A stretch of DNA of 36,333 nucleotides from positions 1-36,333 of the forward strand of contig KZ539295.1 in the NCBI GenBank assembly GCA_000934665.2, read 5' to 3'. Below, one piece after another: positions 3,533-34,800 of the stretch. The stretch is from Catajapyx aquilonaris. Taxonomy: Eukaryota. Made by a program: the position numbers and the translations under genes. Numbering within the stretch: position 1 is the first letter of the stretch; every line of letters starts with the position of its first letter. Under the pieces are notes generated by a model, which saw only the letters and a list, made by a program, of their open reading frames with translations, was not told where the DNA came from and ran no database searches.

Positions 3533-3853
3533 CAATGCTGGACATTATTGGTGTGGTTCAGTGTTGGTCATAAATCGAGGCAACTGCCAGCGACATTTTC
3601 CGAAGCGGCAGAAGAAGGAATCTTGCTTGCCGGGCTTGTAAGTATGCTTATCTTCGATTCCTTCTTCTGCCGCTTCGGAAAATGTCGCTGGCAGTATGCC
3701 TCGATTAATGTCCAACTGGTGGCGCCATGAGCGGCTGGCAGCAAAAGAGCAAACAGAAGCCATGAATCAGTTGCTAACTCATCATTCACGTCACTCTTTT
3801 GCTGCCATCAGCTTGTGACACCATCAGTACTACACTATTGATGTCCAGCGCTG
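3533..3853. mobile_element. Palindromic MITE of the CAGTGCTGGACATTAAT-terminus group (TA TSD)
   Basis: TA|CAATGCTGGACATT ... GATGTCCAGCGCTG|TA, with imperfect internal arms. Confidence 0.65.
3559..3718. mobile_element. Nested hairpin MITE with about 50-bp near-perfect arms
   Basis: AATCGAGGCA(T)ACTGCCAGCGACATTTTCCGAAGCGGCAGAAGAAGGAATC at 3573-3622 and its inverse ending at 3706. Outer ends resemble CAGTGTTGGACATTAAT. Confidence 0.8.
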
Positions 3854-4237: not shown

Positions 4238-4560
4238 TGTGACGCCCAGTTGGCATGCACATGAGAAGCTACGAGTGACCCATACTAATTGGGTACACCC
4301 TGACCAGGTTCGGGCTTACGGTGGCCATAACCAGTGTGAGGAAGCACGTATAAAGTTCGCCTGTCTCGACTACACCCACAATGACAACCCCCTCACTATA
4401 GGTATCCACCTGACCGTTAATCCGGGCGGCACACAAGGTGCTGGCCCAGACAGCAGACGTACTGGCCAGTTTGGTATATGTTGGCCGGCGCAGTGTGGTG
4501 GCCCATTCATCAACCATGATCGGCTGGTAACCAAATGAGTCGTTGCATCCGGCGGATCAC
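4238..4560 (-). mobile_element. Diverged LTR fragment related to the 21737-22751 gypsy LTR
   Basis: Begins TGTGACG (compare TGACGG at 21737). 4297-4345 aligns loosely with 21927-21978, and CCGGGCGG...TGCTGGCCCAGA at 4421-4450 matches the LTR motif. Right boundary uncertain. Confidence 0.55.
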
Positions 4561-5933: not shown

Positions 5934-7334
5934 TGTTTCTGAGCAAATTGGGTGGGCGCTAGTTGGCGGGACTTCGGGCTTTAACGTGACGGAGTTTTTT
6001 CCTCGAAATAATGCTTCTGGTGGCGGCCACGAGGGTTTTTTATAGGGTCAATCCAGCATGCCCGTCGCATTACGAACCATGTTTTCAAGTCCTTTTTCCT
6101 CCGTTTTGATACCCGTACTTTTCGGAAAAGGATGCCAGTGCATATACTCGCGGAATGTCCCGAGCCGCAAAAGTAAGCTCAAAATAAAACAAACGCACGA
6201 AATATGAAATGAGGGCATCGTTGCAGAATCTGTCGCAATAAAAGTTGCTCCATGAAATATTATACTGGATTTGTGACGAATGTGATGAGCCACATCTACA
6301 TAATGTGGTGTAGTGGGCTAGTGGCTAAGACTATAGTCATTTCATCTCTAGGATCCTGATTAGTGGGACAGCAAAATCCCGGGAAGGATTTTCTCATGTG
6401 GGCAGGTTGAGTTTAGATGAGCTATATTATATCTCCATATGCTCACCACGGTTCCTCCCATCTGAATTCTTGAATTGAATTAATCTGCCCAATGTCTAGT
6501 AAAATTGCTATACACACATATCATTAGGTAACCAATTATTAATATTGTTTAGCCATACGGATCATGATTACATATAATATCAAAATCGTTTGAAAACCTG
6601 TTTTGGTCCCTAGTTTGCTACCACTCGAGTAGATACAGTATATACCAAGTTGCCTGGGTTAATTTTAGGATGTGAACAGGCTTCAAGTGACCGCCAAAAG
6701 CAGCCTGCTATAAAAGAGGCCAGCCGCGACAAATCACAACTTTTGCTGCAAATTCACGAAGTTTTCTGCCTGCCCTCTGCCTAAAATGCACACTACTCCA
6801 TGCTGATTAATGAAACTATAAAAAATATATATATAATAATGCAAAATGAGCTCACTCATAAATTACGTAGGACCGAACAAGGACAATTTTCTTATGCCGA
6901 CTAATGTGAGCAATTACATTATGCAATATTTCATTGTGGTTGCAGAACCCTTCTAAACCTACCAGTTAGACGTGGCTCGTCACATCTGGCAAATATACAG
7001 TATAGTATTTCATGGACCAACTTTTATTGCGACTGATGCAGCATCAATGTCCTCCTTTCATATTTTGCATGTTTGTTTCATTTTGCGCTTACTTTCACGG
7101 CTCGGAACATTCCATGAGCATGGGGACATGCACTGGAGTCCATTGCCGAAAAGAAAAGAAAACTGCACAAAATGGACGTGAAAACGTGGTTCGTAATGCG
7201 ACAGGCATGCGAGATTGACCCTATTGAAAACCCTCATGGCCGCCGCCAGAAGCCTAATTTCCAGACAAAAAAAACTCGTCACATTAAAGCCTAAAGTCCA
7301 GCCAACTAGCCCCCACCCATTTTGCTCAGAAACA
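5934..7334. repeat. Inverted pair of a diverged 365-bp repeat (5934-6298 and 6967-7334)
   Basis: The arms align in reverse complement. ORFs 6048..6293(-) and 6972..7181/7012..7218(+) share peptides such as FHG.TFIATD and EN.VRNATGM.D. Confidence 0.9.
6307..6400 (+). mobile_element. Possible decayed tRNA-derived SINE head
   Basis: GTGGGCTAGTGGCTAAG resembles a Pol III A box; no convincing B box or cloverleaf. Confidence 0.25.
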
Positions 7335-7605: not shown

Positions 7606-8655
7606 CAGCTGAACATTAATTCCATTGCGCTACTAGTGACATCCACCTAGGCGGCAGAAGAACACATCGAAGTGATGGAGTGCAAGCCTTAAGAGTAAGA
7701 AGTGGTTACGTCATAGGCTGGGGGCAATCGAGTCCAGTCAGTGACGTCACTCAGGGGGGCCGTCCAGATGGGCCAACCTTAGCCGCGGCCGCGACGGTTC
7801 ACACGGCAACGGCCACGGGTCAGAAGTTGGCCAAGTTGGCCGACTTCCTGGAAGTTGGCTCGCTGCTTGGCCACGGCTTGGCCTCGGCGACGGATACTGC
7901 TCGTCACTTGTTTTTCGTCGCTGCCATGACTATCGGCCACTATTACAAATGCGGGTGGCTGTTATTAAAATATGTGCCCGTCTGAACGGGTACCATGGCC
8001 AGCCGTGGCTCCGCAAGCCAGGGCCACGGCCAGCCGCGGCTAAGGTTGGCCCGTCTGGACGGCCCCAGGGTCTACTGCTTCTTACTCTCACAGCTTGCAC
8101 TACGCTCCGATGTGCTCCCCTTCCGCCTTGGAAAATGTTGCTTGCAGTACGACTGAATTGACCAATTTCCAGTTACGTGTCTCCCGCGGCCAAATTTTCC
8201 CCGCCATCAAAATGGCGGCGTTATATGTGCAGAGGCGGGAATTCCCTGCCCATGTTAAATGGCCTCTGCTTGCTTGCGTCTGGTGGTCTGGCCCCAGGGC
8301 TGATCTTTCTGGTAATTTTTTTTTTTGAGTGACCAGGGACTGGACCTTCCCTTACCAGGTGCTTGAAGTGAATCGGCCCCGAGGCGAACTGCCCCCGGAG
8401 TAATTTTGTGAGCGGTGACCATGCTTCTCTCATTATCATCCGCCCTCTTAGGAACCTCCTCACTCCACAATAAAATGTCAACAAGATCTGCCCCGGGGCC
8501 AGACCCCCAGACGCGAGCAAGCAGAGGCCATTTAACATGGGCAGGGATAGGAAAGTCCCGCCTCTTGCTAGCATTTCACCGCCATCTTGATGGCAGGCCA
8601 AAATTGGCCGTGAGAGGCGCACATCTGGAAATCGGTCAATTAATGTCCAGCACTG
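7606..8655. mobile_element. Composite palindromic MITE made of two internal foldbacks
   Basis: Left end CAGCTGAACATTAATT, right end AATTAATGTCCAGCACTG|TA. Foldback 1 has arms at about 7617-7705 and 8072-8159. Foldback 2 has arms at about 8156-8322 and 8472-8641. Confidence 0.7.
7756..8066. mobile_element. PIF/Harbinger-type MITE
   Basis: 34-bp TIR GGGGCCGTCCAGA(T/C)GGGCCAACCTTAGCCGCGGC with 3-bp TSD AGG at 7753-7755 and 8067-8069. Confidence 0.85.
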
Positions 8656-15290: not shown

Positions 15291-15335
15291 CAAACTATAT
15301 GTTTGTGGCTGAGACCAGATGCAGTGAGAATGAAA

Positions 15336-16412
15336 TGCCAGATTTGTGTCCTACTATTACAGAGCTTCTCATTCCTGTGATTCGTTGGAACAATTACGTG
15401 TTATTTAATTCCAAAATAAGACAAAGGAAACCACCACAAGGAGTCCTTTGGAACAGTTACTATAGGTCAATTATCGCACTTTTCTTTCCTTCACTTGAAT
15501 TATGCAGTCCTTATTCGTGTGAGCCTTACGGATCAGTGATGTGACTCGGAATTTTCTGAAAGAAAAACGACTATTGAGAACTAATTTACATGACGATTTC
15601 CAAGGTTAAATTGTTTAATGCTGCAGCTTGTGACACCAACAATTTACATGTATAAAGTGGCACGTTATTTGAATCACACTGACTGCCAGCTCTAACCATC
15701 CAGATGCTCACGACTGATAATGTTTTTAGCATAGCCTGAGTTGTCACGAATGGATTGTGACGTGGCTACTGTTTTATTTTTACACTATTATCTGCACAAC
15801 ATTTTTGTTACTTTGTGATTGTGTTTTCGTCTCAGTGAATGTAATTTCTTCATCATATTCAGCTGACATGGCTAAAGACAACATGGCCAGCTGTGGCAGC
15901 TCCTGTATTCCGTTGTTGTCGGAATGAAGAGTTATTTAAACTGCCAATGTCTGCGCTTGCAACAATGAGTTGTCTCCGAGGACATTTCCATTCCAGGTGA
16001 AGCGATCCGTAGTCAGTCTCCATGTCATGCAATATACCCTTGTGCCTGTAACCATGAGAAATACGAAACATGCACCATGTGTAAGACTTTCGCCTTTTTT
16101 TTCCATTCCTGGTTCTTCTTGCCAATCTGACATTTGTACGGAAAGTGTGGTCTTGCAATGAGAATCTTCTTGCGTAATAGGTATGTCTTTTTCATGATGT
16201 TATTGTCGTGTGCCACCCGCGTGGGACACGAAACTGGTATTATATTTTATCCTGATGGTTGGAAATCATTTTGTTATTTTTAAGTATACTCTTGGACTCC
16301 TTGACTGTCATTTTTTCAGATTACTTCCAGGGGGAAATGCACTGATATTTGCAACAATTACTCGCTTGCAGAACTAAAGATATCATCATCAGCAAGTCCT
16401 GATGCACAATTA
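15336..16412 (+). repeat. Copy 1 of an old local direct duplication
   Basis: 15336-15692 aligns with 19080-19451, and 15729-16412 aligns with 20580-21589 with indels. Confidence 0.9.
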
Positions 16413-19077: not shown

Positions 19078-19459
19078 TATGCCAGGTTTGTGTCCTACTA
19101 TTACATAGCTTCTCATTCCTTTGATTCGATGGAACAATTACGTGTTACATATTCCAAAATCTGATAAAGCAAACCACCATAAGGAGTCCTTTGTAACAGT
19201 TACTAGGTCAATTATCGCACTTTTCTATCCTGCTCTTGAATTATGCAGTCCTTAATATCAGTTAATATTCGTGTGACAGTACCTTACGGGATCAGTGATG
19301 TGACTCGTAACATTCTGGGGTAAAAGTGACTGTTGAGAAGTAATTTATATGACGATTTCCAATGTGAAATTGTTTAATGGTGCAGCTTATGACAGAAACA
19401 ATTTACATGTGTAAAGTAGCACATTATTTTAAGCACACTGACTACCGGCTCTGCTCGTC

Positions 19460-20340
19460 TAACTGTTGAAATTGGTATACCACTTTTGGCCTCAAGACCA
19501 AGTCTGATGGTTGTCGCGAGGTGATGGACCAACATTTAACACCACGTCATTCTGCCATTAAGATGTGGCTTACTTAGTCATGATTTTTTTTCCTGAGGCA
19601 ACTTTCCTTAGGTGGAATCTGTTTCTCATTCCCAAAATTATGAGCTGTATTTTTCCAAAACAAAATATTTCACATCGTCCTATTTGGTACAACATTCAAT
19701 ATAAGAGTGCTAAGGTCACCCTCTTCCCGTCTTTTGGATGGTGAAATTTGATGCAGCCACTGACCTTTTCATACATACGAAATAAGTAATGACTGATTCT
19801 GGTGTGGGCACATGGGAACCAAGGTGTCCTATATCCGCACCAGCTGTGCGGAACACATCGTAGTCATAACGCATGCGGCTAATCCTTGAACCTCTGTAGT
19901 CTGGGTGTGAGGTCATCGAGCCCTTTCTTTTTGAGGATGGGCAATAACGGGTTGTGATCCGTCTCTAGATGGAATCTCACATCAGGTACATAGTCCATAA
20001 ACTTGTCACATGCCCATGCCAAAGGGAGACACTCCTTTTTAATTTGACAATATCTGTTCTCTCATAATAATTGCTTCCACTTCAACTGGATCTGGCGGAC
20101 TGATGCCTTTTTGAGATACCATATTCCCTAGAAATCTCAACTCTTGCAATGCAAAGGGGCATTTCTGTGGGTTCAAGGCGTATCCAGCAGTGGATATACC
20201 GTTGTAGAACTCCTCACAGGAGAATGTGTGTCTCTCTATGTTGTCGCAAGTCGTCCAAATTCAGGATCCTCCTTTCGATACCTCCCTGCTGTATCGATAT
20301 TTCTGCCAGCGTGTTTCTGACGAACGTTTCGAAGGGAATT
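19460..20340 (-). pseudogene. pol: Decayed Ty3/gypsy pol (RT-RNase H) fragment
   Basis: About 20070-20200 reads AGYALNPQKCPFALQELRFLGNMVSQKGISPPDPVEVEAI (RT C-terminal region); ORF 19716..19916 HPDY...VITY...AASNFTI resembles RNase H. Confidence 0.75.
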
Positions 20341-20628
20341 GCATTGTCACCCACCAACTTGTTTAGCTGTAATGATATAAATATACAGAATTACGTATAT
20401 AATTATACACTGTACGCAGTCGCCTTGTACGAATTAGGTGTTTATTTGAATAAGGCCCGTTGGGCATTGGGGCTTGCAGTGAAGTCCCAAATCTCCTTCG
20501 TGGATACGTTTCGGTCTTGTTTGATATGAAAGTGCCTGATATTTGATTAGACGTAAACGTAATAACCATGCAGATGCATATAGCCTGAGTTGTCACGAAT
20601 ATATTTTGATGTGGATAGTGTAACTATT

Positions 20629-21414
20629 ACAAGTGGGAAACCAAGGCTTATCGTGTGCCACCCACGGTGGACACGAAAAAATGTTTTATTTTTACACTAT
20701 TATCTGCACAACATTTTTGTTACTTTGTGATTGCCTTTTGGTCTCAGTGAATGTCATTTCTTCATCATATTTCTATGGCAAGTCAGCTGACATGGCTAAA
20801 GACAACAATCATGGCCAGCTGTGGAAGCTCCTGTTTTCTGTTGTTGTAGGAATGAAGAGTTATTTAAACTGCCAATGTCTGCGCTTGCAACAATGAGTTG
20901 TCTCCGAGGACATTTCCAGGTGAAGCGATTAGCATGCCAACTTCTTGGATGCTGTTAGCGAGGCTTCAAATCTCTTTGTCTCCTCGTTAGGTAACAGACC
21001 GTTGTTGCTGCGAGCAAAAAGACACGTCAAGTCTTTAAAACTTCATCGATTTAATGTTTGATTAACAGTGACAATACAGCTGTACTACCCAAAAATGGAC
21101 GTCGCAGGTGTAGATTAATTAAATGTACAACTGATTTACCAAGGTCGTGACGTGACCGCCGTAATCATCCCAGCATATTGGAACTCGCAATATTTATTGT
21201 TCCTTGTCATAGTCAGTGCCCATGCCATGCAATACACCCTTGTGCCTGTGACCATGAGAAATACGAAACATGAACCATGTGTGTGACTTTCGCCCATCTG
21301 ACATTTGTAAGGAAATGATCTTGCAGTGATAATCTCTTTACGTAATAGGTATGTCGTGTTCAAGATGAATCACTGCTGTTATTGTCGTCCCACCCGCGTG
21401 GGACACGAAACTGG
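20629..21414. mobile_element. Non-autonomous Helitron/Helentron (HINE/DINE-1-like) element
   Basis: A CGTGT(G/C)CCAC...GTGG(G)ACACG-type palindrome lies near both ends (20652-20675, 21386-21407). The minus strand ends subTIR, short hairpin, CTTGT; the plus strand alternatively reads hairpin then CTGG|T (CTRR). Paralogous end at 16207-16237. Confidence 0.6.
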
Positions 21415-21600
21415 TATTATATTTTACCATGATCGTTGCAAATCATTTTGATATTTTCAGTCTGCCGTTGGACTCCTTGATTGTCATTTTTTCGGAGTAC
21501 TTCCAGGGGGAAATGCACTACTATTTGCATAAGTTACTCGCTTGCAGAAATAAAGGTATCATAATCAGCAAGTCCTGATGCACATTATTAGCCTGTACAT

Positions 21601-21736: not shown

Positions 21737-22751
21737 TGACGGGTGAGGTGTTGTGGGAGTCTTTTGGAAGGGAGTCGGATGGTGTTGTGGGTGTCTTCTT
21801 GAAGGGAGTTGGATTGGTTCTTTTCCCGGCTGTTCTTTTACGATCAGGTGTGATGCCAGGTTCTACTTTCCGGGGATCACAATAGGTGTTAAGGATAAGG
21901 CCCTAGGTGTTGGGTTGTTTGACCTTATCCTGCCCTAGTCCGTGCTTCCGGCGACTCGATAAGTCGTGAGGGGGAAGCTCTTCTGTAATAATCGAGTCCG
22001 ATAATCCGGGCGGTGCGAGCCTGCTGGCCCAGACATCATTCTCTTACCTTACTTGTGTATGTTCAGGCGGCGCAGCCTGCTGGCCCAAGCATGACACTCG
22101 TAAGTATTATTAATAGAAGTACGTGGGAATTGCCTAATCAGAATGAATAGTCGGATTGGATGACCCGGGCGGCGCGAGCCTGCTGGCCCAGGTATCCGTT
22201 CCTCCTGCCGGGAGTATACTGGGGTGGCGCCTACCCAAATATGACCCCTGGACAGTTTACTATTTATACCTGTACTCTCTATATGAAAAGAAACACAATA
22301 ATGTTATCTTTTAATACGGAGTGGCAAGTGTATCAGTAGCCGCCAAGTCTCGGGGAGAGCTCCCTGTTCAGGGGACCTTCCACTTGGACTGCTGGCCACT
22401 GACTGACTTTCCGAGGCACCGTTAGCTTTATTTACACCTCGGTTTGCGTACGGTAACGCGGGTAAGGGCCAGTTGCACCGACCTCAGTATATCTTAGAAC
22501 CTCGGGTATATCAAGAATTGCCATAGCAATCATTGTTGACCAACAATGATTGCTATGGCAATTCTTGATATACCCGAGGTTCTAAGATATACTGAGGTCG
22601 GTGCAACTGGCCCTAAGACAGGGGTCTGGGCAACGAAAACCAAGGAGAATTAAACACACAACGAAAGACCCCTGGTTACACCACGTTACCATGCACAACC
22701 AAAATAATCAATGCACTTTACAATAACAATGATGTATGACTTGACATTACA
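21737..22751 (-). mobile_element. 3' LTR of the Ty3/gypsy element
   Basis: Minus strand begins TGTAATG directly after a PPT and ends ...CCCGTCA. TATAAATA on minus at 22261-22268. No 5' LTR in the window, so the left boundary is inferred. Confidence 0.65.
22466..22613. mobile_element. PIF/Harbinger MITE, perfect 148-bp palindrome inside the LTR
   Basis: 73-bp perfect arms beginning GGGCCAGTTGCACC, 2-nt spacer AC, TAA TSD at 22463-65 and 22614-16. Confidence 0.92.
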
Positions 22752-22755
22752 ATTA

Positions 22756-22767
22756 CTTCCTTCTTCT
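22756..22767 (-). promoter_or_regulatory. Polypurine tract
   Basis: Minus strand reads TTTTT AGAAGAAGGAAG TAAT|TGTAATG, directly upstream of the LTR. Confidence 0.7.
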
Positions 22768-22841
22768 AAAAAGAGTGTTAACCCACACGGGTGAACAGCT
22801 TCTTTTTCTCTCTCTTTTTTAAAAACTTCTTCATCTCTCTG

Positions 22842-23544
22842 CTAACGGTCCAGATTATTCTGCTTCTCTGGTTTCCCTTCTGCTGTCCGCTTAGCTGCTT
22901 CTTCTTCTTCTACCACTGCTTCCTGGTTGTCATTTCTCAACGCCCAAGGTAGATGTCCTCGAACATGGTCCGTGAACATGCTGCTTGTGACATCCACTGG
23001 GCCATGGGTACGACGAACATGGTCGATAACCCAGGATGTTTTATTGTGGTAGGTCACCCTTTCCAGCAACATCTTCTTCCCGTGGTGTCTTCTGATGAAG
23101 TGCCAGTGACGTCATCTTCTTCTTGTTGACTGCCATTGTTGTCTTCTTTCTCTTCCTCTCGTCCATTTTGTTCTTCTTCGTCTTCTTCTTCACTCCCAGA
23201 CCATTCTCCAAATAGTTCGAATAGAACATCCTTCCTCTTGAGTGGCAGAGAAACAGCCGACGTCTCTTCATCTTCTTCCTCGCTGGAAGATGGACCAAAG
23301 ACTGCTCGAAACCTCTTCCTCGTCGGTGGAGAGTAAGGACCTGGTGTGATTCTTCATCTTCAGTCCAGTCGTCAAATAGAAGGACTCCCACCTTCTTCTT
23401 CCACAGCTTATTAATGGCCAATGGCTGACCTGGTGATAGGTTGGGAGGAGATGGCGGAGATGAAGGCACAGGAGAAGCACCGGGCAGTTGAGCTAGCCTT
23501 TTACGCTGCCCCCCTCTCTGCCTCGACTTACTTTTCTTCCCCAT
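22842..23544 (-). pseudogene. Accessory non-env ORF between pol and PPT, basic N-terminus and acidic repeats, frameshifted
   Basis: MGKKSKSRQRGGQRKRL, a P/S-rich stretch and LFDDWTEDEE; then in a shifted frame VFGPSSSEEEDEE and LFGEWSGSEEEDEEE; the tail is ORF 22842..23072. Confidence 0.55.
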
Positions 23545-23574
23545 TTTCGAGACTGTAATTCTTTCTCGAATTCT

Positions 23575-26215
23575 GATTTGCAAAATTTTGCAACGTCTTG
23601 TGTCATTCCTCTCCATGTGTATGATTTCTGAATTTTGCGTATCATTTTCTTCACCCCAAGGTGTGCAGAAAAGGGAGGATTGTGATTTTGCTCCAAAATT
23701 TTGTATACCATAGACCTTGGCACAACTAAGACTTCATTGTTTCTCATTTTGGAAAAGAGAATGTCTCCTTCCACAAAATAATTGTTGAAACAAGGGACAC
23801 TCACTGAGAGATTTTTGAGAATGGACAGACAAGTCCTGTCTTCCCTTTGTTTAATAATTTTAGGACGATCCCAAACTACAGAAAATTCAGTTGTGACTGG
23901 GCAAACCGGAATGCGACAGAGAGCATCCACATGAGGCATGGATTTACCCGGTTTGTGGATCACTTGAAAATTTTACTCTTGCAGAGTGAGAGACCAGCGA
24001 GCTAACCTGGATGTGGGATCCTTCAGGTTTATTAGCCACTTGAGACTGGCATGATCAGTGACTACCGTGAATTCTCTGCCATACAAATGACATCTGAACA
24101 TTCTTATGGCCCATACCACCCCTAAACATTCTCTTTCGGTGGTTGAATAATTTTTTTCCTGGCTTATTCAACTGCCCTGCTGACATACTCTAATGGGTGT
24201 ATCCCATCTTCAAATTGAGCAAGTGTAGCACCAATTGTAAAACCACTAGCGTCAGTGGAGAGAATGAAGGGTTTGGAATAGTCAGGACACCTCAAGACTG
24301 GGTAAGATTGTAAGGCATCACGTAAGGTTTTGAATGAAAGTTCTTGCTCAGGACCCCAAGAAATGGTTTGCTGACGTTTGGAAGATAGATTTCTTGTCAA
24401 CATAGTCAACGGTCTGGCAATAAATGCGAATTTCTTAATAAACCTTCTATAAAACCCTACTAATCCTAGGAATGCTCGTACATCTCTTACAGTTGTAGGA
24501 CGTGGACAGTTTTTTATCGCATCAATCTTTTTAGGATCGGGTTTAACACCTTCTCCAGTGACCACATGACCCAAGTATTTCACTTCCCTCTTCAAGAAGT
24601 GGCATTTGGACAACTTTAGTTTAAGACCAGCCGCCTTAAGTTTATCAAAAACCCGAGTAAGTCTGGACATGTGTACAGAAAGATTTTGAGAAAAAATGAT
24701 AACATCGTCTAAGTACACTAGACAAATTTCACTTTTTAACCCTGCCAGAGCTGTATCCATCAGCCTTTGAAAGGTAGACGGAGCATTGGCTAAACCAAAA
24801 GGCATTTTTCTGAACTGGTATCTGTGATTTGGTAGAGTAAATGCTGTTTTTTTCTTTATCTTCACTCCTTACAGGCACCTGCCAAAAGCCAGAGTGTAGA
24901 TCTAACGAAGAAAAATAAGCACAATTTCCAAGTTGGTTCAAAGTGTCTTCTATAGTGGGTAGAGGATAAACATCTCTTTTTGTTACACTATTGAGCTTCC
25001 TGTAATCCACACAGAATCTTAGAGAACCATCTGGTTTCTGAACTAAGACGACAGGAGCTGCCCATGGACTCTTTGTTTCTTCGATGATACCAGAGTTGAG
25101 CATATCGCATATGCATTTCTTTACCTCCTGCGACTGTGATTATGGGATTTTATATGGTCTGCAAGCAATTGGTCGTGCTTCACCCGTGTCAATGGTATGT
25201 TCTGTGAGTGAAGTGTTACCATATGGACCATTTTCTCCTTGGATAAGTTCTGAATAAGATTTAAGGAAGGTCATAAGGAAACTCTCTTCTTTTTCATTGA
25301 GACTTGATTTATCCAACTTTGACCAGTCCACAGGACTATTTGTCACTTCAATTTTTGGATGTGGGAGGCATGGAGTGGCCTTACCAACTATTGTATTAAT
25401 AGGTATCTGAATCTGGGAATTGGAAGTATTTAATACCATTATATATGTGTTACCGTCAAGAGAAGTAGTTACGGTGGTTGCAACTGTGAGACCTGGATGA
25501 TTGCTACCAACTGACTCGATGATCATGTCTTTATTTCCCAAAATTACGTTAATTTTTGCAGGAATAATATTGCTTCACAGCGAGGTGGAATCGGCATGTC
25601 ATCATTCCAATGTACTGTAGTACTCTGAGGAGTCTTTTCTCCTACTAACGGGATTAAGTCTCCACATATGTCTATTGCTTTCTTTGATAACAAGATGTTG
25701 ACGTGATAATAGTCTAAGAAATCGACTCCAATGATACCATCAATATCTGTACCAATGTTAATGTCAGAGACCCAAAAGTTGTGTTGTAGTTTATGACTAC
25801 CTATTGTTCGATTGAACCAGTAACAACCATACGATTTGAGTTTATCGCCAGTAGCACTAGACAGGTTAATGTTATCCTGTTCCTTGTAAGAACCATCTTG
25901 GTATGGTACAAAAGTAGGATTGATTATCGATACAGCACCACCCGTGTCGAGAAGAAAGCTTGCTGTTCTACCAGATATTAAAACATCTATTTTTGGAGAT
26001 GTTACACTAGTAATCAAGTGAATGAATGTTGGTTTGACAGACTGTGACTGCATACGGTTTTGATGAGGATTTTGTTGTCGTAACAGGTTATCCTGACTAA
26101 TCTGTACACTATGGCCCCCCTGATTGGATTCTATTGACGTGAGCTGTGAGGTTGTGAGGAGGGCCCCCTCACGTTTTCCGGACACCATTTTGCGTAATGT
26201 CCGACCGTATCCCAC
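23575..26215 (-). pseudogene. pol: Ty3/gypsy pol: protease, RT, RNase H, integrase Zn-binding N-terminus (frameshifts; IN core absent)
   Basis: LLDTGG (protease); SPWAAPVVLVQKPDGSLRFCVDYRKLN, LDLHSGFWQV, MPFGLANAPSTFQR and YLDD (RT); TDASG (RNase H); HNPPFSAHLG...WRGM..DV (IN). Domain order is PR-RT-RH-IN. Confidence 0.97.
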
Positions 26216-26440
26216 TTGTGGCAGACAATATTGTTCGGATGAGGACTACAGTTTCTGTGATGGTTTTGATAATTTCTCATCCCAAATGGGTTATCACGTG
26301 GGTACCTGGTTCCCTGTGGTCGATAAGGACTACCATATTCACCCTGATATGGAGAACCACCACGGCGAAAGCTGTTTTTTACGAGTGCGTTTTTGAAGGG
26401 ATCTCACCACTTTTTGCTAAGTTGAATGATAATGAATGAC
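26170..26440 (-). pseudogene. gag: gag C-terminus with zinc knuckle
   Basis: IVCHKWDTVGHYAKWCP is CX2CX4HX4C with the second Cys replaced by Trp; it overlaps the pol frame, which is -1 relative to gag. Confidence 0.8.
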
Positions 26441-26986: not shown

Positions 26987-28294
26987 TTATTTTCCCCCGC
27001 GTGTCCCCCGAGCCGCCCGAACACCTCGTGCATCACGATCCCCGCGACCACCTCGTCCACCTTGTCCACCACGACTCCCACGACCACCCCGACCATTGGC
27101 AGCATGGTCTGAGACTTGATATTGGATATCCGTTTGATAATCCTCCTGGACCCGATGTACATATTTAGATCCTGCCCATACTCGGTCAGGGGCCTTTTGA
27201 TGTATTTTAGAATTAGTGATTTGGAAACTGCAAAGGTCTGGCCTGAATTTAAATCTGAGTCTGTTGTATTCTGTAATGGCTTTGTCGTTAGCTTTGACTT
27301 GAGTAGAATCAAAGTTGATTAGATGAATCCCTTCCAATTTTTTTACTCGAGACAAGGCCACATAAGCTTGACCACAACAGAAAAGTGATGAGCCAATGTC
27401 CATAAGGGCACTGTCTAAGCTCAACCCCTGGCTCTTATGAATCGTGATGCCATATGCTATTGTTAATGGGAACTGTTTTCTATGAATGAATGCGTTTGCC
27501 ATAATTTGAAATTTGCTATTGACAGGTAGTAGGTCGTGTTCTAAACCGAAGGAAAATTTAATCATTATGGATTTAACTTTTTGTGGAGCATCGGGGTGGT
27601 ATGTCACACTGAGTACAGTACCAACTGCGCCGTTAACCAAGCCAAGAGTAACATCTATGTTCCTTCTCAACATTATTTTAGTTCCAAGTTTAACAGTAAT
27701 GGTTCGCTCCAAACCAGCTGTATTGGAACAATCATCTTCGTACTTTTTAAGTAGCTTGTCTACATGAGCTCGGACAGATCTGGAACAGTCCACCGAGTCT
27801 TCAGCTAGAAGTACAATTTCAGGAGTGTTGATGGTTTGAAGCACGGTTTCATTTAGGACTTTGCACATATGGCATGTAGGCAGGAAACAAATGGTATCTG
27901 GCGGCAGCTTTAGTAGGTAGTCAGCAATTTTTTGTAGTGTGCCAGTAGCATGTTTTGAGGGGATATTTATGATTCTGGTTTGAAGAACATGAATGTCATT
28001 TTTGGAAATGATTCCTAAGCGGACTCGTTGAAGCAATTGCACAAATCCATTATCATGTTGCTGCCTCATATTTATCGTTAGTTCGTCGTAAGTGAACAGA
28101 TCTCGCCACAGATTAACCGTGCAAAATGCGCCAAAGTGTTTTTCTGCATCCGCAGGGGAGAGAGTCTCAAAAATTGGATCTTGATGAACAGGTTGTAGCT
28201 GACATAAGTCTCCAAAGAACAAGATGTGCTTTCCTCCAAACCAGCCATTCTCTTCATCTGAAGTTGCATAAATTTCTGACAGACGTAAATGAAT
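26987..28294 (-). pseudogene. Helitron RepHel C-terminal half (Pif1 motifs III-VI) with an in-frame RGG tail
   Basis: [75 protein letters not shown]. The first 32 aa or so of ORF 26987..28393 come from the adjacent inverted repeat. Confidence 0.92.
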
Positions 28295-29080
28295 TATATC
28301 AAAAACTTTCCCTTCAGTAAAAAAAAAGAGAAGTAAGACCTCCGCGGCGGAATGAAAGTACTGAAACAAGGCAGGCGCACGTAAGACCTTCACCGATTGA
28401 TTTAAGCTGTACCATAGGTCTTACTCCAGCAATTTCCAATTCACTGCTCATGAAGTCTCCTTTCTGAAAACAAATTTGTGGAATTTCTGTCGTACTACCA
28501 GTTACTTCTAACTTAGCAGTACCAGTGTAGTGCAATGGTACTGCTATAAGTTAGCAGTAACTACAGACCTATAGTTAATAGTAATAATAGTACGACGAAA
28601 ATTCTGCCCATTAATTTTCCATGAGCCACTCCATATTAGTGTTCTTTGAAATTAGGAACTTCAATATTAAGCACATTGAATTTCTATGCGATTAGTGCGA
28701 ATTATTGCCATGAAACATTCATTCAGAATCGTCACCTCTTTGAGATGCTGATTTTAACTCTAACGTTTAATTTTTCACATATAAACGTTAATTGGTGAAT
28801 TTAAGAGGGTCTTTTTCGATTGGACCAAGTCTGTTAGAATGGGTTTAGTTNNNNNNNNNNNNNATAAAATCCTTCCTATACTGCTCTGAGTAGTTTGCAG
28901 CAGTCATTTTACGAGACGTTCCATACCGTACTTGAGAATTGCTTGAGTAAGACCTATGGTACAGCTTAAATCAATTGGTGAAGGTCTTACGTGCGCCTGC
29001 CTTGTTTCAGTACTTTCATTCCGCCGCGGAGGTCTTACTTCTCTTTTTTTCACTGAAGGGAATGTTTTTGACATAATTTC
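28291..29080. mobile_element. Foldback element with about 140-bp inverted arms
   Basis: 28291-28434 versus 28937-29080 are near-identical in reverse complement, with internal GTAAGACCT repeats; spans the N gap. Confidence 0.8.
28851..28863. other. Assembly gap (13 N)
   Basis: Run of N. Confidence 1.
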
Positions 29081-29269
29081 AGTTCTTCTTTGACAGTATA
29101 CGGAATAGGTACAATGATGCCTAATTTTAATATCATACATATTATTACATTATAATATTTTGAGTTCAGGAGACTGGAGTAGTCCCATGAGGACGACATT
29201 GGGATCACGAGGACTGGATGTTTTGAGATGACATTATCTGGATTGTGGAGAGAGGAAAGGCATTATGGA

Positions 29270-29820
29270 ATATTGTCATGGTACAGAGAGGGGGTGGGAC
29301 ACTAACCTCGGGAATTTGTGTGATGATTTTGGCTAGTAGATTTTGCAATGGCACAGAGAGAGAGAGGGGAGAGGGGGGATACTTACCTCACGAATTTTGA
29401 AAAGATTTTCTTGGTTTTGATAATAATGGTTTGAGGAGATTGGAGAAGGAGTTGATGGTTGTCGAGCAGGCAGGCAGGATCGTCAGGAAGTGTTTTGGGT
29501 CACAAGGACTGGAATTTAAGATTTGTCATGTCAATACTCTTAAGTAAGTAAAGGAGTTGCGGGGATTGCAATGGTACGGAGAGAGAGGGGAGAGGGGGAT
29601 ACTTACCTCACGAATTTTCAAAAGATTTTCTTTGTACTGTTTGATAATAGTTGAGGAGATAGGAGTAGGAGTTGATGGAGGTGGAAAAGGCAGGCAGGGA
29701 TCTCAGGAAGTGTTTGGAGTCCACAAAGTCTGGAATTTAATAGTTATCATTTCAATGATGCTGCCATTATAGGAATTGTAATGGAAATGGAATAGAGGGA
29801 TGTTGGGATACTAACCTCAG
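29270..29820 (-). repeat. Tandem repeat of about 220 bp with splice-site-like motifs
   Basis: Units start near 29343 and 29566; ACTTACCTC at 29381 and 29601; ACTAACCTC at 29301 and 29810. Confidence 0.85.
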
Positions 29821-29833
29821 TTTTCTTTGAGGT

Positions 29834-31111
29834 TTAGGTACGAAGAATCCGGTAGGGAGCTAAGAAGAGTGCCACTGCATCCTTCATGTGGGTTTTCGTA
29901 CTAGTCTCAATACTGACGCTCTGGTCATTCACATGCAACCATTCCTTGCCCTCTCGCACCACGGCGGTGTAGTGCCCACTTAACAAATTGTTCCCCTGGT
30001 GACAAATGATCGCTGTGCACACAAATCTGTCCGATGCAATTCTGACATCGTCAGGATTGAATTCTGAGATGCCAGTAGTCACCTTTCGTGCTCTTTCATC
30101 ATACCGGACCAGATGGAGTAATACACACCCGGTGACCTCCTGGATGCTGTAGGTTGTCACTGGGCAACTGCATGCACATACGGCGCACTGCAGTTGGATG
30201 TCCACCTTCTTCAATAGGCTATCGAATGTAATATCAGTGGCTTGACTTGGAACTGCAACATGTAGGCAGCGCTGCATTCCTGAGGTTTCGAGAGGAATGG
30301 AGTGGCATGTGGTGCAGTGTTCTTCAGTCTGGATCCGGTGAGTGCCCCACCGCTGAAGAGGTTCTGGTAACCTTTCAATGAGAAAGTCCAAGAACTCGAG
30401 AGCGTCCTGCTGTACATCTCCAGTGAAGGGTTCTCCCACAGCTCGTCGCACATCCTGCGTCGATGGCAATACCACATTGCCTGCCTTTGTTGTTTTTTGC
30501 CGCTTTGCTGCTGCAGACTTTTGCGGGCGGTGTCGTGTGAGCGCCTTCTGCATCTCCACAATGATGTCACTCCCCGCCCTCTTCGAGTTTAACAGCAGTC
30601 GAAAGTCCGATTGGGCGAAAAGACATACCAATGCGGCGTTTGCGTAGCAGGAAACCTTAATCGGGCCAGGATTGGAGAACCCTCGAATCTTGACGGTATC
30701 ACTGCTTACAGAAGCTGCAATAATTCGACGCTTCAAGGCCGGTACAGGAAGGGGAGGTATGGAGCGAGTTTCTCGGAGACGGTTGTACTCAAGGATGCAG
30801 CTCCTGTCGGCCTTGATGCACTTTGATTCCAAGTGTAAAAGAAAGAGGGTGTCTAGTGTCTTTACACGTGATAATGCCACGTACGCCATCCCACTCGCAA
30901 ACACAGATTCACTCAAGTCGACCACTGCTGATTCGAGGGTCAGGCCTTGTGACTTGTGAATGGTAATGGCGTATGCAAGTACGAGTGGGAATTGCTTCCT
31001 TTCCACATAAATGTTTGCACCAATTTCGAATTTCACGCTGCACCTCTCTATAGACTTCTCCTCGGAAGGACAGCTATCAAAATTTATGATGGGACGCGTC
31101 AAAATCTTCAA
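29834..31111 (-). CDS. Pif1-helicase C-terminus fused to a USP (peptidase C19) deubiquitinase domain; 5' truncated
   Basis: Helicase motifs [20 protein letters not shown] and [13 protein letters not shown] Cys box [37 protein letters not shown] pairs, LLHLVRY and His box [17 protein letters not shown]...WLHVND. Confidence 0.9.
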
Positions 31112-31819
31112 TCCAGAAAAAAAACTATTGAATAGAGGAACGTGTCAACGGAAAACTACAAGACAATGTTCATCTCCCAACTCACTCCAAACTAGTTCTG
31201 AACATTAATAGAACAAATCGACTTGTTCAGTAGGATTAAATAATCCACACATATCTTAGCAACATAGACAATGACGACCTTCCAGCAGCGTTGCCATAGC
31301 TGAAACATTAGGCCAACAACTATTGTTATTAACCAAAAATATGGCGAGGTGGTAAAATAAGTATTGACGTTTCTAGGTTATGGCGTCATGAACAAAAATG
31401 AAGTAATGACAGGAAAAATACGAGGTAAAAAAATCACAGCTCCAATCCTGTAGCAGTGGGAACTGAGATTTTGAACATAGATCCGCACCATCCCACTGCA
31501 CCTTCGGCCCTTTGATGAAGAAACCAAATTCCGAATAGTTATTGAGCAAAGAAATTGAGACATATTTTTTGGTGGTTTAAATTTTTTTGCGGCGTTTTGA
31601 AGAGGAATTAAGTAAAAGTGTAAATGGTAGGAAATCAAGTCACGACGGTGGGGATCTGTGTTCAAAATTTGAAAGCTCTACCTACAGCAGAACTTGAGTT
31701 AGAGCGAATAAAAAAAAACGTAACAAGAAGAACAACAAGAAGAACAAGTAGGAAAAATTCATTGTTGAAACATTGTTGAAATCTATGCTACGGTCTTACT
31801 TAAGGGCTATCGCCCTTAA

Positions 31820-34800
31820 AATGTACATCAGGGTGAGGTTGGAGACCATGGACACCTCGTCGATGATGAACAGTACTACGTTCTTGAGCTCTCCTCTCAT
31901 GAGCTGTAGGACTTCATCTGATAGAGGACGATATTTTGGGGTCCTCCCATGTTCTATAGGTAACTGCAGGAGTCGATGAATAGTGAGGCCATTGACATTG
32001 AATGCGGCGATGCCTGTCGGAGCGCTAATGGCGACCATCTTGTTCACCTCCTGACTGACCCAGGCTTGAATGGTGTGAATTAGGTGACTTTTTCCAGTTC
32101 CACCAGTTCCATTGCAAAACTTTCTCATGATTGTTGTGTCATTCGTTATTAGGACATGTTGAACATACTTGAACACTCTTCTCTGATCACTGTTCAATAT
32201 GTTAATCATGTGCTGTACATCTACCTCAACATGGGCGATTTGATCCACCTCACGAAGATCATACATAGCATTGGCTGCCTCCACGGGCTGGAACTCTAAA
32301 GGGTTATCAGGACAGTCCCCATCGACTTCTTTACAATGTCCAGCTTCTTCCAACTCGGCTACCTTTGCTTGGATTAGTTGAAAGGCAGTGTCAATCCTTT
32401 TCTGAAAGTCACACTGAAGCTCACTATAACTCAAGCCTTCCTCTATGTCATGTTTAGCCGCACGGAAAGCATCAGTATAGGTGGAGAAGTCAGAAATTAG
32501 TTCGCCTAGCTTTCGCCATGGTGTGAACAGAAGGATTATGGAAGAGAAGAACTGTTCTGGGAACTGATGCACGTCATATCTGTAGTGATTGATCAGATAT
32601 GGGTGTGATCTTTTAATCAGGAATCGTTCCTCACTTATTTGATAAAATTCTACTTGGGATGACGTAGGTTTGTGGATGACTATATCGAACCATTTAGTTA
32701 AATTATACAGGTTCATGTGTTCTAGCTGTGTTGGCCGATTAGGATAATGATCATCCACCCACGACTCATAGAAAATGTTGGTAGATTGTGGGTCCAGTTC
32801 GTCTAATTCCTTCCTGGCCTTGACTCTGCGGTTCCTATGCATGTTAACATCTATCCAGCGAATCGTGGTGTCAGGATCCGTACCATACAGAGGAATGCCC
32901 AAGAGAGTGTCACTAGCCTCGAGTGCACCGCATTCTCTGTGGCTCAAGGCACGCAGGCCAACATTGTAGAGACGACTACACAGATTTATGGTAGAGTATG
33001 AATCAGCAACGTGACCTTTTTCGCTCTTTGTCGTGTACTTGGTCACATAATAATTAAGGACAGAACTTTTTTCGCCCACAAATTGTAAGTCCATATTACC
33101 ATTCCATGCCAACATGATTGCAGGGTTGTAGTCATTAATGTGGGCTTCCTCCTTGGATCTTTTAATATTGTACAGCCTTGAATTAGAGGACAGAGTTTTT
33201 CTAGCAGCTATGGATTCTGTGACGTCCCTTATGATCATCTCGTCTGTTACGGGCCTAGGGAATCCAAATCGACAAACTTTCATGAAACCTGTCGTGGTTT
33301 TTTTTGTTCCTTCTGCAGTAGTTGTTATGGTGGTGAGTCTGATATTTGGTAACACGCTCATGTAATGTTGGGCATGTCTGTTTGTTAGGAATGAGACAGG
33401 TAACATATTTAGAAATAAATTCTGTGACGCTTTCAGTTGACGATACTCCTAGGACGGGGGCGTCTTTAACCCACAACATGAGGTGGAAATGTTGTGCTCC
33501 GCGAGATTGATACTCGCGTCTCCAGAAGTATTGATGAACGGGTCCTAATGGCTCATATTTGGACAGAATAAAGTGTAGCATAGCCTTGAAGTAGTTGTCA
33601 ATGAATCTTGATGCTGAGACTGGATCAAGAGCTACTAACTCACTGGTGGTCTTGTTTGCGAAATCCGGACCGTTGACTTGACGAATGAAGTCGCCTAGTT
33701 CATTCCAACTCCATTCGCTGGGACTAATAGTGAGAAATCAAGTGGCAGGACCGTAATTCTGGGTCATGCAATTTACGTCATTTCTTGGTTTAGCCCAATA
33801 TTGTTCGGTGTTTCTCAATCTCGAGAAAATGGCCGTCAGGTCTCCTTCTAATTCATCAATCTTAAGCATCTGCATGTATCTAGCTGTAGTGAGTCTTTCT
33901 TTGTGCTTAATGATATTGAGTTTATAAAATATGCCAGCACTCAGCTGTCGGATGTTAGCATTATTCAATAAATAGAACAAGTATTGTTGATTTAGTCTCG
34001 ATTTTGAGTGGCTGGACATAAGTTTGGTTTTTATGAATTCAGAAGAAGTTAACTTTACTGACCTCTGCTGAAACTGTCCATATTTTCCACATGGGAATAA
34101 ATCTGGGAAGCATTTTACGTCAAGGTCCTTGTCACGAGAATCTATTGGGGCTGCATTCACCTTGACCATTTGATACAATGCTGTAGCTGTCTCATTGAGT
34201 TTTTTTTCATGAAGAGGATAGATAGTGAACTGTTAATATCTATTTTCAAGCTCAGAGGTAACCTGAGTTAAGAGGGCTGGCTCCATCTCCAGTGTCTCTT
34301 CCACTTCATGTTGTAAATCAGGAGACATGTTGGCGAGCAGTTCTTCGGGACGTGAAGGTAGCTGGATATTTGCATAAAGATGGTTAATCTGGTGAAGTAC
34401 TCGGAGGGTTGAATGAACGTGGTTAACGTCTACTAAATTCTCCCATATAACTTTGCTCCTAGTAGCAGCGCCTCTCACCAGAATGTAGAGTTCAGGATTG
34501 TCACAGAGGGCTTCCTTTGGTTTTGGAATTTTCCGCAAAGTCTGCTGCAATGGCAATGGCGACCTATGACTTTCTGGTGGAAGGTGCGACCTATGACTTT
34601 CTTTACCTTGTGCCTGTTTGGAATATTTTTATTTCCAATAGATGTAACCACTTAGAAAGCTTTGGCCCTCTGGATTAATATTTTTTCATACTCATTTAAA
34701 TGTTCAATTTCATGTGGACGATCCGGAACGAGAAGTTGATTCATAATGCAGGTGGCTGGCATGGCATTGTGCCTAAATTTCTGCAGACAGTATTGACAAA

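Follow-up and report, generated by a model that had tools for sequence, protein, structure and literature searches.

The lentiviral TAR hairpin starts at position +1 of the transcript and needs Tat, and in HIV-2 TAR is duplicated. In Drosophila gypsy, an array of Su(Hw) insulator sites lies in the transcribed leader, after the long terminal repeat (LTR); these sites are recognized as duplex DNA and lack hairpin symmetry. Among retroviruses, redundant R-U5 stem-loops that bind a protein are described as an established device, as in the case of the PCE, which resides in R-U5 of spleen necrosis virus and others and is bound by RNA helicase A (PMC2657110). For Ty3/gypsy-type elements, such cis-acting signals in the RNA have been mapped only poorly. 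A review of 2016 describes the packaging sequences of Ty1 and Ty3 as not precisely defined and the structure of Ty3 RNA as uncharacterised, and these elements therefore offer no direct counterpart for comparison (PMC4974528).

Here we describe an array of hairpin-capable motifs in a 36,333-nt stretch of DNA from Catajapyx aquilonaris (contig KZ539295.1), which was analysed at its full length and is called the window below. Three motifs are duplicated copies of one hairpin unit of about 40 nt, and two diverged copies lie at a separate locus at 4.4 kb. The support for this array consists of three exact cores within 190 nt, a total of five copies, and better folding of the minus strand. That it acts as an RNA signal is plausible, though not proven. 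The five copies, with their covariance-model scores in bits, are as follows.

22158 to 22197, minus strand: hp1, an 8-bp stem with a 4-bp outer extension and the core TGGGCCAGCAGGCTCGCGCCGCCCGG; 59.1 bits
22059 to 22092, minus strand: hp2, a weaker copy that has one loop base fewer and includes a G-U pair and a C.A mismatch; 51.4 bits
22005 to 22033, minus strand: hp3, with an outer stem extendable to about 22037-22001; 62.8 bits
4421 to 4450, minus strand: hp3b, a diverged copy of hp3; 46 bits
4483 to 4505, minus strand: hp2b, a degenerate copy of hp2 whose stem pairing is lost; 39.3 bits

An initial annotation of this DNA had placed three hairpins in the main array, and both their coordinates and their sequences, read along the minus strand from 22197 to 22158, 22092 to 22059 and 22033 to 22005, proved correct, each being able to fold. 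All three units share one layout, in which a lower stem UGGGC/GCCYG is followed by CAGCA and then by GGC-loop-RCC. Together they form a GC-rich island in AT-rich surroundings, with spacings of 56 and 103 nt. The exact 13-mer TGGGCCAGCAGGC is found three times within 190 nt of the minus strand, against 0.65 expected (3 of 100 shuffles reached three), and no fourth occurrence was found in the 36-kb window with up to two mismatches allowed. Core identity among the three units amounts to 22-25 of 25-26 bases, while the co-duplicated flanks align in part only. Between hp1 and hp3, a 51-nt stretch matches at 80% and a separate alignment of 87 nt at 70%; as these two units are duplicates of each other, their likeness represents one inheritance rather than independent events.

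The recurrence of the core at 4.4 kb, also noted in the initial annotation, was borne out both by sequence and by a covariance model, with a full copy at 4450-4421 and a degenerate one at 4505-4483, both on the minus strand. The model was built from all five copies and searched over the whole 36-kb window with filters off; it matched its own five copies only (E values of 1e-17 to 4e-10), the next-best match in the window having E=1.2. The CAGCA motif, initially thought invariant, is identical in four of the five copies and reads CACCA in the degenerate copy hp2b.

The resemblance of the 4.4-kb locus to the hairpin stretch is confined to a 98-nt local alignment (4414-4510), with surroundings that do not align. 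Its score of 68 lies above those of shuffled sequences (mean 28.5, maximum 42). Compared with hp3, the lower stem plus CAGCA is identical at 13 of 13 positions and the 3' arm at 12 of 12, while the spacer is about half identical to that of the main stretch. In hp3b the apical part has been swapped for a different 4-bp stem, GCAC/GUGC, and the hp2 copy beside it has decayed. Such a pattern would match the expectation for a selected protein-binding hairpin, with ascertainment bias possible because the local alignment is seeded by the best-matching stretches. The locus had been taken for a poorly alignable LTR fragment; its flanks beyond the 98 nt indeed do not align, and it displays no LTR feature. 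As a candidate LTR it was rejected, being without ends, repeat partner or Pfam family.

The features that bear on the setting of the main array are given here, the roles of the polypurine tract and the poly(A) signal being putative.

21984 to 22751, minus strand: probable LTR with TGTAAT...ATTACA ends, 768 nt long with the foldback insert and 522 nt long when this is left out
22756 to 22767, minus strand: candidate polypurine tract AGAAGAAGGAAG, 12 nt, 4 nt upstream of the LTR start
22410 to 22655, no strand assigned: foldback (palindromic) insert of 246 nt in the upstream part of the LTR, with its core at 22463-22617
22261 to 22268, minus strand: candidate TATA box TATAAATA, as read from the sequence
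22106 to 22111, minus strand: weak poly(A) signal candidate AATAAT, with the GT-rich GAGTGTCATG after it
23493 to 26403, minus strand: degraded Ty3/gypsy-type gag-pol, upstream of the LTR and on the same strand

LTRs of the Ty3/gypsy type are described as having 5' TGTTRNR...YNYAACA 3' ends with short inverted repeats, and as carrying a TATA box with AATAAA and a GT-rich stretch downstream of it (PMC3601003). The proposed LTR has TG...CA ends of this kind: TGTAATG (22751-22745) and TATTACA (21990-21984) are perfect inverted repeats of each other over 6 nt, in a symmetric motif that leaves the orientation unfixed. The candidate TATA box (22268-22261, minus strand) lies 64 nt upstream of hp1, in agreement with the roughly 65 nt first estimated. 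It is followed by an Inr-like TCAT, the A of which, at 22242, is 26 nt downstream, and transcription would presumably start from this box. Downstream of the box only AATAAT occurs, and the sole canonical AATAAA in the minus sense (22432-22427) is upstream of it, inside the foldback insert. If the AATAAT were the poly(A) signal, hp1 would fall in R, and hp2 and hp3 in U5.

On these features we consider the stretch probably an LTR. Given that it is one, we hold with reasonable confidence to the minus orientation, which is favoured by the strand of pol, by the 26 nt that separate the TATA box from the Inr-like motif, and by the strand on which the wobble pairs fit. A second purine run, GAGGGGGAAG at 21968-21977, precedes the element when it is read in the plus sense and fits the opposite orientation; together with copies that align down to 21968, it makes the minus orientation probable rather than proven. 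No second matching LTR was found in the 36-kb window, in which nothing but the 98-nt fragment at 4414-4510 matches, and the window yielded no target duplication. A TGG-type primer-binding site was not found after 21984, inspection by eye revealed no self-priming or tRNA primer site, and a tRNA scan and a tandem-repeat finder returned nothing. The initial description of a multimerised unit downstream of an LTR TATA box therefore stands as regards a hairpin-capable and repeated unit; its placement in an LTR rests on the ends, the purine tract and the multi-copy status of the stretch. By eye, GGACUCGAU (21999-21991) can pair with AUCGAGUC (21960-21953) on the minus strand; the proposed LTR end and the next 23 nt would lie within this stem (region 21951-22000), a position that resembles that of the retroviral stems bracketing primer-binding sites.

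The gag-pol remnant comprises a zinc knuckle at about 26400, a protease at 26245-25544, reverse transcriptase (RT) and RNase H at 25139-23973, and an integrase zinc-binding domain at 23972-23493, all on the minus strand. Pfam assignments are Asp_protease_2 (5.5e-06), RVT_1 (3.8e-25), RT_RNaseH_2 (1.5e-17) and Integrase_H2C2 (2.6e-14); no integrase core was found in the Pfam search, and only the zinc-binding domain remains. With about 780 nt between the broken end of the integrase and the LTR, this pol and the LTR need not be parts of one element. Between the two lies an acid-rich open reading frame (ORF) on the minus strand (23054-23353), which, like the other LTR-adjacent ORFs, has no Pfam family. 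The stretch beyond the integrase (23041-23530, minus strand) could be captured or unrelated sequence.

Directly upstream of the gypsy gag are Helitron-like ORFs (26987-34232, minus strand) with PIF1 helicase (8.8e-15) and ubiquitin C-terminal hydrolase (5.2e-17) domains. In the same region are a run of 13 Ns at 28851-28863 and repeats at 220-nt spacing (29374-29721). A pair of direct repeats of about 1.07 kb (15335-16408 and 19079-21584) is 85-96% identical and may be the LTR pair of a further element; its second copy is split by about 1.1 kb that includes an RT/RNase H fragment at 19879-20260 (minus strand). Inverted repeats pair 5934-6298 with 6967-7334 and 8156-8332 with 8460-8641, and a palindrome of 154 nt occupies 3563-3716; these are 78-82% identical.

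The hairpin stretch belongs to a family that is present elsewhere in the genome, with a varying number of units. Four DNA runs, all from one sample and study of this organism, contain matching sequence, and none of the runs listed is an RNA run; contigs from three of the DNA runs were compared with the stretch at 80% likeness. One diverged contig, over 21968-22128, differs at 10 letters and has 22 gap letters; another, over 21973-22111, differs at 17 letters. One contig joins 22018 to 22074, which gives a copy with one hairpin unit fewer, and a second one passes directly from 21986 to 22076. In some copies the alignment extends 11-16 nt beyond the proposed LTR end; at the opposite side, one loose contig end lies at 22712, and diverged homology continues up to TGTAA. 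Summed contig depth over 21961-22266 is about 10-18 times that of adjacent single-contig stretches, a ratio that is not a copy number. The best-supported variants listed within 21961-22266 fall at 22114, 22145 and 22252, with indels at 22043, 22045, 22119 and 22128, and among these listed places none is inside a hairpin.

The foldback insert stands apart from the hairpin array. It matches its own inverse over 22427-22654 (84% over 232 columns), and its core has TTA on its flanks and ends in GGGCCAGTTGCACCGACC. Contigs that skip the insert, joining 22409 to 22656 or 22462 to 22618, indicate copies without it, and its summed contig depth is hundreds of times that of its flanks. A fifth run matches the foldback insert only, its absence on the hairpins being uninformative. 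A sub-threshold Rfam match to mir-219 (31.3 bits against 54.5) belongs to this insert and was set aside as a candidate for the hairpins. The foldback end and hp3 both have GGGCCAG...GCACCG, probably by chance.

When folded as minus-strand RNA, hp1 reaches -23.3 kcal/mol (z -2.75, against z -1.46 for the plus strand), hp2 -11.3 kcal/mol (z +0.24, against +0.21) and hp3 -14.9 kcal/mol (z -1.69, against -0.48). The 4.4-kb copy hp3b reaches -17.8 kcal/mol with z -2.9 on the minus strand, and RNA folding of the degenerate copy hp2b did not form the hairpin. Stability is thus clear for hp1 and the 4.4-kb copy, moderate for hp3, and at chance level for hp2. Within a 266-nt context the minus strand forms all three hairpins of the main array in both its minimum-energy fold and its centroid fold (z -1.48; plus strand z +0.19). 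The RNAalifold consensus is likewise more stable on the minus strand, at -11.26 versus -7.66 kcal/mol. G-U wobbles make up 7 of the 45 paired cells, at pairs 10-41, 13-38 and 14-37, and fit the minus strand alone, because the plus strand would have A.C mismatches at these places, just as first described.

The inner part of the hairpin is less consistent. The GGC/GCC inner stem holds in hp1 and hp2 only, and in hp3 it is broken by a 3' side that reads ACC. When hp2, hp3 and the 4.4-kb copy are folded singly, each pairs the GC(A) within CAGCA with a downstream (U)GC, and RNAalifold likewise pairs the GC of CAGCA. With at least two inner foldings available, the supposed CAGCA bulge may be partly stem; the bulge with a GGC/GCC tip originally drawn is one possible folding, in place of which RNAalifold uses the CAGCA pairing.

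Pairing was examined on the five-copy alignment over eight outer and three inner pairs, with 500 shuffles. The paired cells amount to 81.8%, against 77.9% in shuffles, a value reached by 32 of 500. Double-sided changes occur at 2 of the 11 pairs (reached by 143 of 500 shuffles), and the covariation score is 0.245 versus 0.187 (reached by 42 of 500). The RNAalifold covariation term for the same alignment is +0.12. Covariation among the five copies is therefore not significant. Between the duplicates hp1 and hp3, pair 11-40 changes from C-G to U-A and pair 10-41 from A-U to G-U, the bulged base varies, and all of the outer-stem differences retain pairing; since the two are not independent, the pairing common to both is largely inherited. 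A separate comparison shuffled only the 12-nt flanks and held the core fixed. On the minus strand, the outer extension is better than expected in hp1 (p=0.006), borderline in hp3 (p=0.055), and at chance level in hp2 (p=0.26) and the 4.4-kb copy (0.19); the corresponding plus-strand values are 0.06, 0.15, 0.35 and 0.68. We regard the RNA-structure support for the hairpins as suggestive only.

Relatives outside this organism were not found in scans of metagenomes and viral contigs. The metagenome pattern scan gave at least 119 stretches and the viral-contig scan one. BLAST of 21900-22800 against 120 listed loci returned matches of only 22-35 nt, over the pattern itself. These 120 loci have a median GC content of 68%, with 2 of 120 below 50%, and the five that were inspected (L028, L085, L090, L116 and L120) carry a single motif each in unrelated flanks. 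The matches were accordingly dismissed as chance occurrences in GC-rich contigs. Rfam scans of 2.5 kb and of 301 nt gave no match on the hairpins and no TAR model at E values up to 10, so that the Rfam search proposed with the initial annotation assigned the hairpins to no family; the best match on the hairpin stretch was ACA59 on the plus strand, at 13.9 bits against a gathering threshold of 43. A likeness to the 5' end of 7SL RNA was discarded, as no SRP model matched in the Rfam scans, and so was a CTCF site, of whose consensus only the first 10 bases fit. In the literature searched, no report of TAR-like hairpins in retrotransposon LTRs and no description of this motif was found.

Our tentative preference is to regard the array as redundant protein-binding RNA hairpins in R-U5. 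The units would sit in R-U5, the downstream and presumably transcribed part of the LTR in a Ty3/gypsy-type family, and the sense (minus-strand) RNA would fold each of them into a stem of 8-12 bp. The lower stem and CAGCA appear to be conserved as sequence, and the outer stem in its pairing only; the fixed core would be read by sequence, while the outer stem would merely have to pair. The putative partner is the element's own Gag, whose zinc knuckle would select the RNA for packaging, and a close second is a host RNA-binding factor that would promote export or translation. It is somewhat doubtful that the units have no function of their own and are by-products of the tandem duplication of a GC-rich imperfect palindrome in the LTR, arising for instance when reverse transcription switches templates at a stable hairpin and then inherited within the family, with seeming conservation that merely reflects the youth of the copies. 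Such an origin fits the flank similarity of hp1 and hp3, which is that of segmental duplicates (51 nt at 80%, 87 nt at 70%), the differing number of units among copies (the joint of 22018 to 22074), the degraded state of hp2 and of the copy at 4483-4505, and the lack of significant covariation among five copies. It fits less well with the identity of 22-25 of 25-26 core bases in units whose co-duplicated flanks align only partly, with a core that is still intact in the 4.4-kb fragment even though its surroundings no longer align, and with outer-stem changes between hp1 and hp3 that all keep pairing.

The same conserved core could instead be a set of protein sites in DNA downstream of the promoter, forming an enhancer, silencer or insulator on the model of the Su(Hw) array, which we judge unlikely. 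A reader of sequence would conserve just what is invariant here, a fixed stretch of about 26 nt that includes the unpaired CAGCA and the loop; the GC-rich island in AT-rich DNA with its 56- and 103-nt spacing and the inconsistently kept inner RNA structure also agree with recognition as DNA. Against this, the flanks beyond the core differ between units yet remain complementary, and G-U mismatches are confined to one strand, two properties that duplex recognition would not select for. The transactivation proposed in the initial annotation, in which a nascent-RNA hairpin would bring an activator encoded by the element to the promoter, in the manner of lentiviruses, is highly improbable. Bulged hairpins downstream of a TATA box, a duplicated unit as in HIV-2, and the acid-rich ORF at 23054-23353 between the broken integrase and the LTR speak for it, but the likeness to TAR is positional only: no TAR or other family matched in Rfam, the literature search for such hairpins in retrotransposon LTRs found none, and the start predicted at 22242 puts hp1 near +46 rather than +1. 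Moreover, no ORF has a transactivator domain recognisable by Pfam, which identified nothing beyond protease, RT, RNase H and the zinc-binding domain of the integrase. A very remote prospect is that the hairpin is a portable response element exchanged between unrelated LTR families and read by an element-encoded RNA-binding accessory protein, as a Rev/RRE-like or CERV-like switch for export or packaging in an arthropod-type gypsy lineage, with the number of units tuning the response; module exchange of this kind would account for an alignment of no more than 98 nt at the 4.4-kb locus.

Read as redundant protein-binding RNA hairpins, the array would be a further case of cis-acting hairpins in LTR R-U5, which are of a known kind, and of interest to specialists. 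If functional, it would offer a handle on which protein selects the element's RNA, on non-autonomous relatives that hitch-hike on this selection, and on the evolution of unit number in such arrays. A merely duplicated palindrome would be an ordinary repeat structure, and either outcome bears on one transposon family and on no general question.

Set beside the known systems, the array resembles HIV-1 and HIV-2 TAR in having bulged hairpins downstream of a TATA box, in duplicate in the case of HIV-2, and differs in that hp1 would lie near +46 from the predicted start, with no Tat-like gene and no Rfam match here. With the Su(Hw) array of gypsy it shares a repeated short motif downstream of a gypsy-type promoter, and is distinguished by imperfect palindromes that lie inside the LTR. 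The retroviral PCE, as described, also consists of redundant R-U5 stem-loops that act in an orientation-dependent manner through a bound protein, an action that is here proposed (PMC2657110). Unlike the PCE, to which they have no sequence or Rfam relation, the hairpins described here are near-identical repeats with a fixed core, and their transcription, protein binding and effect on translation are putative. The packaging and dimerisation hairpins described for MLV, HIV-1, MMTV, Ty1 and Ty3 are likewise short, with conserved unpaired bases, and lie near the 5' end of the genomic RNA (PMC4974528, PMC8096270). In the reviewed systems the known packaging signals mostly follow the primer-binding site (PMC4974528), whereas the present hairpins lie inside the LTR; a possible reader for them is the zinc knuckle of the Gag that the element encodes.
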